Assembly (NCBI RefSeq): GCF_003334305.1
Contig: NZ_QOWS01000016.1
Source of the DNA: Escherichia coli
GTDB taxonomy: Bacteria; Pseudomonadota; Gammaproteobacteria; Enterobacterales; Enterobacteriaceae
Reading direction: 5' to 3' (one strand)
Length of the DNA stretch: 64,000 nucleotides
Shown here: piece after piece, positions 229 to 6,737 of the stretch
How positions within the stretch are numbered: the stretch's first letter is position 1
Layout of the letters: every line of letters starts with the position of its first letter
The notes under the pieces: generated by a model
Told to the model about the DNA's origin: nothing
Databases searched by the model: none
The model's input: only the letters and a program-made list of their open reading frames with translations
Translations under genes and position numbers: made by a program

Positions 229-1494
229 TCAAACATCCATGCCCAACGCTCGCTTACCGTGAATGTTGAGGTCGGCAAGCGTAAAGCGTCCTTCCCAGTT
301 TGTTTCATAGTCCTCGCGCGGGAAGTCGCCCGGCGATGCGCCTTTTTCCAGTGCGGCCTTCACCTTGTGCGCGTAGGCAAGATTTTTCTCGCACATCGGT
401 GCCGCAGGAATGTACATCACGTTGCCCCAGCCCTGTTGATTTTCAACGGGGGCAACGGAATGGATGACGTCGCAGTGCCACCAGACGGAGTCTCCGGCTT
501 CGAGTTTTGGAATGCTGGTTAACGCCTCAATCAACAGTGGATGCCATTGCTCTGATACCGGCAATACTCTTCCGGGCGCTACGCCGCACAGTTCATCCTC
601 CGGCACATCATCAAGCAGCGGACGTAACAGTACGTACGCCATGGCTTCAGGAATGGGCACGACGTGCAGCAGCCCCTGACCAGGCAGCATATCAGAGAGC
701 GCTGTCCAGCCCTGGAATGTCCGAAACACGGAACATTTGGTGGTGTTGTCCACCGTGTACTCTTCAACTTCCGTACGATGTGCCGCATGCCAGGGATCAT
801 ATTGCGCCAGATTGCCATTAAAGACGTTGGCGAAAACGCGCTGATACGCTGGAAGCAGCCAGCGTTCCAGTGCCCCGGAGTCGGTATGCGCTCCAAGACC
901 TTTGGAGGTCGTTCCGGGCGGACGGCGGCGGATACGGTCAGGGTAGATGACGCTCACATCCGGGTTAAACCATTGCTTTCCATCACTTTCAAATGTCCAC
1001 AGACGATTGAGAAACGACTGCGCATTCGCCATTTCTTCACTCTGGCGAGCCTGCATTTGCGCCTGCGACCAGTAGATGGGGTAAATCTCGGGACGTGAAG
1101 CGCTGAGCGTCCCGAAGAAATTATCGCCGGGGCCTTTGTAGACCTCGTCAAAGCGGTTGCGGTCCAGATAGTCCAGCATCGACTGATCCCAGCCTAGCGC
1201 TTGTTCGCGGGGGAAATGGCCTTTTATCACCGCACAACCGCGACGTTTAATCTGTTCGCGCTGCTCTGCAGTAACATGACCTGCTTTGATATCGGCATAA
1301 GACAGCACCGGCCAGACGGCATCGCCCTGTGCTTTGAGTGCGTTGATTTCAGCCACTCGCGTGGCAATGTCATCGCTTAGCTGATTAAAGATCTGCTGGA
1401 CGTCGCCAAGCTGCGCCCGCAGCGCGTGCTTCATCTGACGGATAGCTGCTTTGTGATCGGCAGGCAATGTGTCGCTGGTAAAAGTAGAAGCCAT
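229..1494 (-). CDS. ybiU: DUF1479-family protein YbiU
   Basis: Track ORF 229..1500 (423 aa, GTG at 1500); ATG at 1494 gives 421 aa, matching the K-12 YbiU length as I recall it. First gene of the conserved ybiU-ybiV-ybiW order. Confidence 0.85.
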   Translation of the reverse strand: MASTFTSDTLPADHKAAIRQMKHALRAQLGDVQQIFNQLSDDIATRVAEINALKAQGDAVWPVLSYADIKAGHVTAEQREQIKRRGCAVIKGHFPREQALGWDQSMLDYLDRNRFDEVYKGPGDNFFGTLSASRPEIYPIYWSQAQMQARQSEEMANAQSFLNRLWTFESDGKQWFNPDVSVIYPDRIRRRPPGTTSKGLGAHTDSGALERWLLPAYQRVFANVFNGNLAQYDPWHAAHRTEVEEYTVDNTTKCSVFRTFQGWTALSDMLPGQGLLHVVPIPEAMAYVLLRPLLDDVPEDELCGVAPGRVLPVSEQWHPLLIEALTSIPKLEAGDSVWWHCDVIHSVAPVENQQGWGNVMYIPAAPMCEKNLAYAHKVKAALEKGASPGDFPREDYETNWEGRFTLADLNIHGKRALGMDV

Positions 1495-1645
1495 AACCAC
1501 CTCGCATTAACTTTCATTCGAAACTCTGATGATTTGCATGTGACAATATAAGTTATAAATAAGTTAATGCAAGTTTAATGATTTGATGTGATGTACAGGA
1601 TGTAAAAAGAAGGGAAAACCGGAGCGCATGGCTCCGGTAGAGAGG

Positions 1646-2461
1646 TCAGCTGTTAAAAGGGGATGTGTTATCCAGCACCGCCTGAATCACATTAAGCGCG
1701 CCTTCATGATTATTATCATCGGTAGCGTAACGAGCGATTTGTTTAATGTTTTCCGCAGCATTGCCCATCGCAAAGGAATAACGCGCCATTTTCAGCATCT
1801 CCGCATCGTTACCGCTGTCGCCAATCGCTACCACATTTTGCGGTGACAGATCCCAGCGTTTCAGTAACCGCGAAATACCGTTTGCTTTATGTAGACCGGG
1901 AATAATCAGGTCGATAAAGCCAAAACCACTGGTAACGGGTTTCATAATGCCATCCAGCGCTACGTGCAGTTTGTCGATCACTAACGGGATTTGTTCATCC
2001 GGCAGGTTGAGCGAAAATTTGAACAGTACGTCGTCAATCTCCTGATAATCTTTTACAGGTTTCAGGCGATGGTAGTGTTTTGCCATCAGTGCGACGAATG
2101 CTTCGGGGGCGTTTTCGCTGACATATGCACTTTGCAGACCGCAGGCGACAAAATTGAGTTGCTTATCTTTTAGCAACTCGCCAATAACAATCCGCGATTC
2201 ATGTCGGGTCAGTTCGCCGTGGAACAGTTGATTGCCATGTTCGTAAACCAGTGCGCCGTTTTCCGCGACAAAAGAGATCTCATCCTTTAGCTCAGGAAAG
2301 AACGAAATAAGCTGGTAATACTGATTACCGCTGGCGACAACGAACTTAATGCCGCGCTTTTTCAGTTCCTGATATTGCGCCATAAAACGTGGTTGGTTGT
2401 ACGTTTTGGCGTCGTTAAGAAAAGTACCGTCCATGTCTGTGACGATAACTTTTACGCTCAT
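1646..2461 (-). CDS. ybiV: HAD-superfamily (Cof-type) sugar phosphatase
   Basis: 271 aa; N-terminal DMDGTFL HAD motif I and C-terminal GDSGNDAEM motif; matches YbiV. Confidence 0.9.
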
Positions 2462-2606
2462 AGGTGTGCTCCTGGCTCGAAAATGAAACCGTAACAGTGT
2501 AATAATAATGTGACGCAGAGCACAAATTATATTTCGAATGAAAGTAAGGATGAAATTGATGATGTGAATGATTTAGCCCGGCGACGACGCCGCCGGGCTG
2601 AGAAGA

Positions 2607-5039: not shown

Positions 5040-5044
5040 GGTTG

Positions 5045-5971
5045 TTATCCTCGTAAGGTCGCGGTTAACCCTTTCTGGCAGGCATACTGCTGGGCAAAGT
5101 CGAGCAGTTCTGGCGCATCAAGCGGTTTTTCCGGGGCGTCATAGGGTAGATTAAGTAAGTGATATTTGTTGATGCCCAGCGTGTGGTAGGGCAGGAAATG
5201 AATTTCACCAACGTGCAGCTCGTCGGCGGCAAAATCGGTAATGGCTTTCACAGAGGTTTCGTCGGCATTAAAGCCCTGAATCAGCGGCACGCGGATAATG
5301 ATTTTTTTGCCCGCTGCAGCGAGTTTTTTCAGGTTATCCAGCACTCTGGCGGCGTTACCGTCGGTCCACTGTTTAAACGGCGCGTCGGCAACGTGTTTTA
5401 AATCGGCAAGAAACAGATCGATATAGGGCAGAGAAGGGGCGATATATTTCCACGGCACATGCAGACAGGTTTCTACCGCAGTATGAATGCCGGCCTCGTG
5501 GCTGGCTTGCAGCAGCGCCGTCGCCATTTCCGGCTGCATAAACGGTTCACCGCCAGAAAGCGTTAAGCCGCCGCCGCTGCGATCGTAAAACGGTTTATCG
5601 CGCAGAACGGTCGTCATGATCTCCTCAACGCTTTTCACTTCCCCACACACGGTTAACGCCTGTGTCGGGCAGCAGTCAGTTAGCGCCGTAAAATGCTCCG
5701 GGGTTAACTTTTCCCGATGAATAAGCAAACCATTCAGCGCGCGCTCAATCACTTCCGGCGCTGCCTTAGCGCACAGCTCGCAGCCTTCCAGACACAGTCG
5801 TGCGTCATACAGCAGATCCTGCGTGCGGGCGCGGCTTTCCGGGTTCTGACACCAGCGGCAGCCCAGCGAACAGCCTTTAAGAAATACGACCGTGCGGATA
5901 CCGGGGCCATCATGGGTCGAGTAGCGCTGAATATTGAAAATCATAGTTGCCTCTCTGTTTCGTTCAAACAT
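5045..5971 (-). CDS. ybiY: Glycyl-radical-enzyme activating enzyme (radical SAM)
   Basis: 308-aa maximal ORF; CSLGCRWC radical-SAM CxxxCxxC motif plus extra Cys clusters ([20 protein letters not shown]). True start may be the internal Met of MIFNIQRY (about 299 aa). Confidence 0.85.
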
Positions 5972-6074
5972 TAAAATACTTTCGAATGAAAGTTAGATTG
6001 ATGTGCGTCAACTGTTCAGAGAGTTTTCCCGTGATAGTCTACATTCAGACAAAAAGTACATTTTGAGGATGGTT

Positions 6075-6737
6075 ATGGAACTGTATCTGGATACTTCAGA
6101 CGTTGTTGCGGTGAAGGCGCTGTCACGTATTTTTCCGCTGGCGGGTGTGACCACTAACCCAAGCATTATCGCCGCGGGTAAAAAACCGCTGGAGGTTGTG
6201 CTTCCGGAACTTCATGAAGCGATGGGCGGTCAGGGGCGTCTGTTTGCCCAGGTAATGGCTACCACTGCTGAAGGGATGGTGAATGACGCACGTAAATTGC
6301 GTTCTATTATTGCGGATATCGTGGTGAAAGTTCCGGTGACCGCCGAGGGGCTGGCAGCTATTAAGATGTTAAAAGCGGAAGGGATTCCAACGCTGGGAAC
6401 CGCGGTATATGGCGCAGCACAAGGGCTGCTGTCGGCGCTGGCAGGTGCGGAATATGTTGCGCCTTACGTTAATCGTATTGATGCTCAGGGCGGTAGCGGC
6501 ATTCAGACTGTGACCGACTTACACCAGTTATTGAAAATGCATGCGCCGCAGGCGAAAGTGCTGGCAGCGAGTTTCAAAACCCCGCGTCAGGCGCTGGACT
6601 GCTTACTGGCAGGATGTGAATCAATTACGCTGCCACTGGATGTGGCACAACAGATGATTAGCTATCCGGCGGTGGAAGCCGCTGTGGCGAAGTTTGAACA
6701 GGACTGGCTGGGAGCGTTTGGCAGAACGTCGATTTAA
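6075..6737 (+). CDS. fsaA: Fructose-6-phosphate aldolase 1
   Basis: Track ORF starts at 6003, but ATG 6075 after GAGGA gives 220 aa beginning [10 protein letters not shown], matching FsaA (transaldolase-like fold). Confidence 0.9.

Follow-up and report, generated by a model that had tools for sequence, protein, structure and literature searches.

The ybi-fsaA locus of Escherichia coli, a probable YciT-regulated module for the anaerobic breakdown of 1,5-anhydroglucitol

The ybi cluster and its genes

Five genes lie between positions 229 and 6737 of a 64,000 nt stretch of Escherichia coli DNA, the window of this analysis (NCBI RefSeq assembly GCF_003334305.1, contig NZ_QOWS01000016.1). The open reading frame (ORF) list and the RefSeq annotation agree in placing ybiU, ybiV, ybiW and ybiY on the minus strand, with fsaA divergently oriented beside them. 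A preliminary description, made from the sequence alone, had read these as genes for a DUF1479 protein, a HAD phosphatase, a glycyl radical enzyme and its radical-SAM activase next to a divergent fsaA, and both the coordinates and the family scans bear out this gene content. The locus is very likely the E. coli module for the anaerobic breakdown of 1,5-anhydroglucitol (1-deoxyglucose), with probable repression by the DeoR-family protein YciT and possible activation by FNR.

The coordinates of the genes and of the features in their spacers are collected in Table 1. Only 5 nt separate ybiY from ybiW, and the remaining spacers are 145 nt (ybiW-ybiV), 151 nt (ybiV-ybiU) and 130 nt (ybiY-fsaA) long. 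The start of ybiY is an ATG aligned at 5944 across 80 loci from 80 Enterobacterales species, with YbiW proteins 85-99% identical, the sample on which the comparisons of loci between species draw; the extension of this ORF to 5971 is not the annotated start.

The five genes are real, intact and conserved, and a chance pattern is excluded. Over bases 1-9000 the window does not differ from E. coli strain A7 (100% identity), and every one of 5426 complete E. coli genomes contains 80% or more of these bases. The genes follow one another as in K-12, and relative to the YbiW/YbiY/FsaA locus of that strain the window carries only strain-level substitutions and a copy of IS621 between ybiT and ybiU, outside the cluster. 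The 3' end of this IS110-family element covers window positions 1-110 (locus L001, 4800-6110), with its transposase coding sequence stopping 33 nt before position 1; in strain A7 the copy lies inside a repetitive extragenic palindromic (REP) sequence between ybiT and ybiU, and K-12 has no IS621 at the site.

Enzyme class and the anhydroglucitol pathway

YbiW scores 1405.7 bits against TIGR01774, the model for the PFL2/glycerol dehydratase subfamily (cutoff 678.2), and 159.2 bits against the pyruvate formate-lyase (PFL) model TIGR01255, far under its cutoff of 994.2. Among solved structures, it matches B12-independent glycerol dehydratase (1R8W) with 551 bits, propanediol dehydratase with 511, PflD with 496, choline trimethylamine (TMA)-lyase with 437 and hydroxyproline dehydratase with 412, as against 149 bits for E. 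coli PFL. The active-site loop, GC441-I-E443, has the Cys-x-Glu arrangement of the eliminases, and the Cys-Cys pair of PFL is not found at this position. The glycyl radical motif RVAGY occupies residues 783-787, with Gly786 as the radical residue, and the C-terminus also matches the GrcA models. Residues 1-810 align to PDB entry 8ID7 ('Probable dehydratase YbiW'; also 8YJN) with 1849 bits and approximately 11 differences in 810 positions; certain of these differences (EENK to AANA) have the appearance of engineered changes at the surface. The names of 8YJN and 8YJO ('Probable dehydratase PflD') stem from related depositions. The adjacent YbiY matches TIGR02494 with 369 bits (cutoff 174), and possesses a CX3CX2C motif (Cys25/29/32), GGEP at 131, and extra cysteines at 51/55/58 and 91/92/100 that are typical of activases with auxiliary clusters.

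These sequence comparisons place YbiW with the eliminase/dehydratase group of glycyl radical enzymes, apart from the formate-lyases. It shares with the glycyl radical 1,2-eliminases (PDB 1R8W, 5I2A; CutC, HypD) the common fold, the Gly/Cys relay, the Cys-x-Glu base and an activase with auxiliary clusters, and by analogy with these enzymes the elimination probably proceeds via a ketyl radical. The leaving group would nevertheless differ, being the ring oxygen of a cyclic ether, such that a sugar-phosphate ring is opened, rather than water, an amine or sulfite, and YbiW stays under the equivalog cutoffs of these families.

The substrate has been published. As summarised in a review (PMC12441222, citing Ma et al., J Am Chem Soc 2024, 146:26187), YbiW converts 1,5-anhydroglucitol-6-phosphate (AG6P) to 1-deoxyfructose-6-phosphate, the same product that PflD forms from 1,5-anhydromannitol-6-phosphate (AM6P). 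The same summary has 1,5-anhydroglucitol and 1,5-anhydromannitol phosphorylated by the phosphotransferase system (PTS), the YbiW and PflD reaction requiring a glycyl radical, and the pathways supporting E. coli anaerobic growth on 1,5-anhydroglucitol (PMC12441222, citing Ma et al. 2024). The opening of the AG6P ring by YbiW was already published in 2024, so the core of the answer is not new. It accords with the preliminary description, which had argued for an anaerobic glycyl radical pathway with a phosphorylated sugar or polyol, not pyruvate, as its substrate and had named anhydro-sugars among the compounds to try.

Two other functions have to be weighed against AG6P ring opening. A role of YbiW as a spare formate-lyase for pyruvate or 2-ketobutyrate, with YbiY as its activase, would fit the K-12 RefSeq label of ybiW, 'putative pyruvate formate lyase' (elsewhere in RefSeq 'glycyl radical protein'), as well as the membership of one superfamily and the common glycyl radical motif. 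The clustering with bona fide formate-lyases that had been set beforehand as refuting the sugar pathway was not seen: the scores against PFL structures and TIGR01255, the single Cys followed by x-Glu in place of a Cys-Cys dyad, and the AG6P substrate of the review's summary (PMC12441222) together leave this function a probability close to negligible. Scarcely more probable is a B12-independent glycerol or 1,2-diol dehydratase, even though glycerol and propanediol dehydratases, with the same Cys-x-Glu, are the closest characterised relatives of YbiW beyond its own subfamily. YbiW lies under every NCBIfam equivalog cutoff for a named dehydratase; the genes conserved beside it encode an aldolase, a hexose-phosphate phosphatase and a DeoR regulator of the sugar-phosphate type, to which Rouxiella adds a sugar kinase, a transporter and PtsG; no aldehyde or propanediol dehydrogenase or microcompartment genes were found among the neighbours identified; and the literature substrate, as given in the review's summary, is again AG6P (PMC12441222).

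FsaA, the proposed next enzyme after YbiW, is matched over residues 1-220 of 220, with 451.4 bits for NF009296 (cutoff 306) and 281.9 bits for TIGR00875 (cutoff 246). In the original work, FsaA or FsaB reportedly splits 1-deoxyfructose-6-phosphate into glyceraldehyde-3-phosphate and hydroxyacetone, and GldA, the gene of which lies away from the ybi locus, reduces the latter to 1,2-propanediol.

The proposed pathway would begin with entry of 1,5-anhydroglucitol through the PTS, yielding AG6P. By analogy with the glycyl radical eliminases, YbiY would cleave S-adenosylmethionine on a [4Fe-4S] cluster and place a radical on Gly786 of YbiW, from where it would move to Cys441. The Cys441 thiyl radical would then take the hydrogen from C2 of AG6P while Glu443 accepts the proton of the C2 hydroxyl, and the resulting ketyl radical would eliminate the ring oxygen from C1 (the C1-O5 bond) before the hydrogen is given back, leaving open-chain 1-deoxyfructose-6-phosphate. 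Such a route would account for the formation of one product from the C2 epimers AG6P and AM6P. FsaA and GldA would complete the pathway, to glyceraldehyde-3-phosphate and 1,2-propanediol.

A similar layout is found at the K-12 locus of the PflD/PflC-FsaB-GldA-Frw PTS system, where gldA-fsaB-ptsA are divergent from frwC-frwB-pflD-pflC-frwD. YbiW and PflD are 38% identical and both contain GC(I/V)E and RVAGY, and FsaA and FsaB are 70% identical. The systems differ in that the substrate of PflD is, in the review's summary, the C2 epimer, and in that the pflD locus has its own PTS genes, gldA and an AraC-type neighbour, yijO, and is without counterparts of ybiU or ybiV.

Transcription units and their regulators

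The 16-mer TTTCGAATGAAAGTTA has three matches in the 64 kb window, all in the three spacers of the cluster (Table 1), a number reached by none of 100 shuffles. The sole other near-match to the operator core in the window is TTGCGAATGAAA at 28381-28392 on the minus strand, with one mismatch. Variants of the operator in other species, TTTCATTCGAAA, TTTCGAATGAAA, TTTCATATGAAA and TTTCGTTTGAAA, conform to a palindrome, TTTC-N4-GAAA, which was found upstream of ybiY in 73/80 species, of ybiV in 57/59 and of ybiU in 55/57. These upstream sites comprise 185 of the 218 occurrences of the palindrome in 1.58 Mb of loci. In Mangrovibacter (locus L074), where ybiU has been relocated and inverted, the palindrome moved along with it.

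The regulator acting through this palindrome is very probably YciT. A chromatin immunoprecipitation-exonuclease (ChIP-exo) study found YciT peaks at ybiV, ybiY/fsaA and ybiO, and proposed an uncharacterised pathway of exactly these five genes (PMC8464067). In the RNA sequencing (RNA-seq) of a yciT deletion, log2 changes were +7.7 for ybiY, +7.0 for ybiU, +3.5 for ybiW, +2.2 for ybiV and +1.8 for fsaA (PMC8464067 supplement), so that all five genes rise in the deletion and all three spacers contain the motif. More recently, a massively parallel reporter study found the ybiY promoter to be active only anaerobically and, using mass spectrometry, recovered YciT on ybiY promoter DNA, with a position near -5 and close to the footprint of an unassigned activator; this YciT site is approximately 100 nt off the ChIP-exo call (bioRxiv 10.1101/2025.05.13.653802). 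The ChIP-exo table uses an older K-12 numbering, which was calibrated with ybiO and dmsA. On conversion, the ybiO peak (845561-845592) covers TTTCGGGTGAAAG at NC_000913.3 845571-845583 (locus L083, 3572-3584), around 95 nt upstream of ybiO, a mechanosensitive channel gene; given the motif under this peak, YciT may control more than the ybi cluster.

Gene neighbourhoods also associate YciT with the cluster. Orthologues 58-78% identical to YciT, for which NCBIfam NF040887 is the best match, follow ybiW directly in eight genomes of several genera (Franconibacter, Buttiauxella, Serratia and Affinibrenneria among them), and three further genomes have one close by. Brenneria has a gene for a YciT-like regulator next to fsaA, and in Rouxiella and Mangrovibacter such a gene forms a pair with ybiU. 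No TTTC-N4-GAAA motif was found at the pflD locus and no operator upstream of yciT itself, the one copy there being 2.5 kb off, near ymiB. YciT would thus repress ybiYW, fsaA, ybiV and ybiU through the common TTTC-N4-GAAA operator. Its effector might, as a guess, be AG6P or 1-deoxyfructose-6-phosphate. A literature search found no paper mentioning both YciT and anhydroglucitol, and within the literature searched the link between them appears not to have been made previously.

A second type of control is suggested by an FNR-type box upstream of ybiY. The alignment of the 80 species shows a conserved block in this region, comprising TTGAC-N4-ATCAA, TATAAC, TTTCATTCGAAAG, TAATTTAAT and CTTCATACGAAAG, followed by roughly 15 nt to the ATG, and a match to the FNR-type box with at most two mismatches is present in 76/80 species, against about 5% expected by chance on our own estimate. 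The distance of 41.5 nt from the centre of the box to the inferred start corresponds to class II geometry, and the third operator copy fills the gap between box and -10. The arrangement is similar to that of DeoR-family sugar-phosphate repressors with FNR-activated class II promoters, in that the palindromic YciT operators overlap promoters and the candidate FNR box is centred around 41.5 nt upstream. Operator and box centres are 17 nt apart, compared to approximately 15 nt between the YciT and unassigned activator footprints of the reporter study, and this agreement in spacing suggests that the activator at ybiY may be FNR. If ybiYW additionally requires such an FNR-type activator, the oxygen-sensitive enzyme would be made only in the absence of oxygen. 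At ybiU, a promoter-like block, TTGCAT-N16-TATATT, is conserved in the cross-species alignment, which is without an FNR box there; this fits the very high ybiU and low ybiY and ybiW levels in the yciT deletion, assuming that the cultures were aerobic.

The cluster would accordingly comprise four transcription units, ybiYW, fsaA, ybiV and ybiU, joined into one regulon by the common operator. The ChIP-exo paper instead writes of an 'operon ybiUVWY' (PMC8464067), and a single polycistronic ybiY-ybiW-ybiV-ybiU operon was also implied by the preliminary description; the four genes are co-directional and rise jointly in the yciT deletion, and as the hairpin after ybiW has no U tract, transcription may in part continue into ybiV. 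Such an operon is nonetheless improbable. The two spacers of around 145 nt each have their own conserved promoter-like block and operator, and the sequence 3' of ybiV contains a terminator-like hairpin with a U-rich tail. In the RNA-seq, baseMean rises from 24 for ybiY through 142 for ybiW and 832 for ybiV to 6489 for ybiU (PMC8464067 supplement), the wrong direction for a transcript beginning at ybiY, and the fold changes are very different. Furthermore, ybiU and ybiV are missing or relocated in many species in which ybiYW stay together, and the reporter study takes ybiYW as the operon (bioRxiv 10.1101/2025.05.13.653802). The earlier expectation of one operon is therefore not supported; of the alternative it had named as refuting, independent transcription with unrelated regulation, the independent units were found, whereas the common operator and the joint derepression on loss of yciT speak against unrelated regulation.

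Several of the spacer features are less readily assigned. The hairpin directly 3' of ybiW may be a partial terminator or an mRNA stabiliser, and REP-like hairpins occupy the same position in other genera. Upstream of ybiV, the TGTGC and TCACA blocks of a CRP-like palindrome are at least 95% conserved in 58 species. Activation of ybiV by CRP was considered but would be atypical, as the site is centred approximately 27 nt upstream of the only plausible downstream -10, or else downstream of the TATAAT adjoining the operator, a non-standard geometry in either case. A generic promoter scan returned six sites where 6.3 were expected. Elsewhere in the window, two Rfam matches exceed the gathering score, both unrelated to the cluster: the small RNA RybB at 30409-30487 on the minus strand (105 bits) and naRNA4/CssrE at 43162-43242 on the plus strand (78.5 bits).

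Table 1. Genes of the ybi-fsaA locus and sequence features of its spacers, in window coordinates
Feature	Positions	Strand	Remarks
ybiU	229-1494	-	RefSeq; ORF list extends to 1500 via an upstream GTG
Operator copy 1, TTTCGAATGAAAGTTA	1508-1523	-	Exact match; 14-29 nt upstream of ybiU ATG; putative YciT site
Putative ybiU sigma-70 promoter, TTGCAT-N16-TATATT	1545-1572	-	Read by eye; TTGCAT block at least 95% conserved across species
Terminator-like hairpin with U-rich tail	1618-1638	-	3' of ybiV; terminator scan; RNA fold -14.5 kcal/mol, z -4.8
ybiV (supH)	1646-2461	-	RefSeq and ORF list; Cof-type HAD-IIB hexose-phosphate phosphatase
CRP-like palindrome, TGTGC-N6-TCACA	2509-2524		Upstream of ybiV; one mismatch to CRP consensus
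Operator copy 2, TTTCGAATGAAAGTAA	2532-2547	+	One mismatch to TTTCGAATGAAAGTTA; upstream of ybiV, adjoins a TATAAT hexamer
GC-rich hairpin without U tract	2575-2599	-	Directly 3' of ybiW stop; RNA fold -22.5 kcal/mol, z -6.2
ybiW	2607-5039	-	Glycyl radical enzyme; Gly786 within RVAGY; Cys441 and Glu443 within GCIE
ybiY	5045-5944	-	Radical-SAM activase of YbiW
Inferred ybiY core promoter	5957-5975	-	-10 TTTAAT (5975-5970), start inferred at ~5963; from sequence and 80-species alignment
Degenerate second operator-like copy	5969-5957	-	Over the inferred ybiY start; other-species consensus CTTCATACGAAAG
Operator copy 3, TTTCGAATGAAAGTTA	5980-5995	+	Exact match; ybiY-fsaA spacer; putative YciT site common to both divergent genes
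FNR-type box, TTGATgtgcGTCAA	5998-6011		One mismatch to TTGAT-N4-ATCAA; centre ~41.5 nt upstream of inferred ybiY start
fsaA	6075-6737	+	ORF list begins at GTG 6003; moeB and moeA next

Gene neighbourhoods and the roles of YbiU and YbiV

The adjacency of ybiY and ybiW is maintained in 80/80 species, and fsaA is the divergent neighbour of ybiY in 62/80, including about 14 loci that lie outside the moeAB context and are without ybiV and ybiU. The fullest set of genes is that of Rouxiella aceris (locus L067, 5074-19056), in which a yciT-like gene, ybiU and fsaA are on one strand, and ybiY, ybiW and a ROK-family sugar kinase gene on the other, followed by genes for a GldA-like dehydrogenase, a second YciT-like regulator, a GluP-type MFS sugar transporter and PtsG. 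Judged by its gene content, this set would correspond to uptake, phosphorylation, ring opening, aldol cleavage and hydroxyacetone reduction, and looks like a complete anhydroglucitol utilisation locus in which a kinase replaces or adds to the PTS. The sequence TTTCATATGAAAG occurs 85 nt upstream of the GluP-type transporter gene of this locus.

Other placements of ybiYW differ. In Yersinia, the pair is found between sgrR and a SetA/B-like sugar efflux gene, a sugar-phosphate stress locus (Yersinia alsatica, L079, 7310-14134), a placement already noted in 2009 (PMC2760817); in Y. alsatica no fsaA, ybiV, ybiU or YciT motif was found near ybiYW. In Entomohabitans teleogrylli, a DJ-1-family glyoxalase III gene is located directly 3' of ybiW (L061, 12669-13232), which may be linked to the handling of hydroxyacetone or methylglyoxal.

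The two remaining genes of the cluster, ybiV and ybiU, encode a phosphatase and a probable oxygenase. YbiV matches the Cof-type HAD-IIB model TIGR00099 with 220.6 bits (cutoff 137) and is represented by PDB entries 1RLM and 2HF2, 'Sugar phosphatase supH'; on the strength of earlier literature it was selected for use as a mannose-6-phosphate phosphatase (PMC12801476). YbiU matches Pfam PF07350 (Gig2-like, formerly DUF1479) with an E value of 2e-154, has E. coli protein structures 2DBI and 2DBN, and gave no NCBIfam match; a literature search found no biochemical report on it. Solved structures were searched with all the proteins of the cluster but YbiY, and each search returned the E. coli protein. 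The protein has the double-stranded beta-helix fold of a PhyH-like Fe(II)/2-oxoglutarate oxygenase, with an intact His-x-Asp...His iron triad. Among the 36 diverse homologues from which a structural model was built (pLDDT 93), the triad residues His203-x-Asp205 and His345, together with several arginines, scarcely vary. Structural neighbours include EvdO1, HygX and KanJ, which oxidise sugar C-H bonds beside oxygen. Distant homologues are found in sugar-uptake and catabolic operons: in one, the Gig2-like gene and two genes for short-chain dehydrogenases come after an ABC sugar transporter, and in another the Gig2-like gene accompanies Dak1/Dak2, a lactonase, an IlvD/Edd-type dehydratase and a KDPG-type aldolase.

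The ybiU gene also varies among close relatives. In two other Escherichia species (L003, 13546-14799; L005, 12417-13670), YbiU is just 82-84% identical to the window copy, while YbiW, YbiV, YbiY and MoeB are 95-99% identical; the YbiU of Citrobacter is 89-94% identical, and the E. whittamii and E. albertii loci (L002 and L004) are entirely without ybiU. This pattern suggests allele replacement or horizontal exchange at ybiU.

We regard YbiV and YbiU as members of the YciT regulon. The anhydroglucitol pathway might alternatively consist of ybiYW and fsaA only, with ybiU and ybiV as unrelated neighbours: the pathway summary in the review makes no mention of YbiU or YbiV (PMC12441222), relocated modules do without both genes, YbiV is a broad-specificity phosphatase, and the oxygen-dependent fold of YbiU looks misplaced in an anaerobic pathway. 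The frequency of the same operator upstream of ybiU and ybiV across species, their derepression in the yciT deletion, around 130-fold for ybiU, and the presence of ybiU and a yciT orthologue beside the module in Rouxiella and Mangrovibacter, with the operator carried along in the latter, make this unlikely, if clearly less so than a single operon.

The occurrence of an oxygen-requiring and an oxygen-sensitive enzyme in one regulon suggests an aerobic alternative. YbiU might, as a speculative reading that we consider doubtful, be the aerobic counterpart of YbiW, hydroxylating C1 of AG6P or of the free polyol to give a hemiacetal, that is, glucose-6-phosphate or glucose; YbiV would then be a relief-valve phosphatase, by analogy with G6PC3 in human neutrophils. 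The common operator, the derepression of ybiU and its lack of an FNR box fit this proposal, as do the pairing of ybiU with yciT in Rouxiella and Mangrovibacter, the oxygenase fold with its intact triad, the structural neighbours acting on sugar C-H bonds and the homologues in sugar operons. Sinorhizobium morelense is reported to oxygenate 1,5-anhydromannitol at C-1, giving mannose, which also fits. What counts against an aerobic role of YbiU is that growth on 1,5-anhydroglucitol is probably anaerobic only (PMC12441222).

A number of observations weigh against parts of the assignment of the locus to YciT- and FNR-regulated anhydroglucitol breakdown. For the YbiW reaction the sources are a review's summary and PDB molecule names. 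Klebsiella and Raoultella have no fsaA at the site despite keeping ybiV and ybiU, so the radical enzyme does not require a linked aldolase gene; likewise, where the module has been relocated, in about 18 genera, it is without ybiV and ybiU, which are thus not core to the pathway. The FNR-type box is not unusual within the window alone, with four matches where 2.6 are expected, and carries weight because it is conserved rather than because it is rare there; no FNR binding data were found. Finally, the two ybi ChIP-exo peaks are located 100-150 nt from operator copies 1 and 3 and do not themselves cover a motif, an offset that may reflect imprecise peak placement.

Annotation of the locus has been slow to follow these results: RefSeq labels lag behind the published function, and a 2026 preprint still describes ybiYW without functional annotation (bioRxiv 10.1101/2025.05.13.653802). 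AG6P is a toxic metabolite that causes neutropenia in G6PC3 and G6PT deficiency (PMC12441222), and bacterial enzymes that remove it, possibly including one that is oxygen-tolerant, would be of some translational interest. Under the regulatory scheme proposed here, YciT gains a physiological role as the repressor of an anhydroglucitol regulon and, if the aerobic function of YbiU were true, this one regulon would handle a dead-end sugar phosphate both with and without oxygen.

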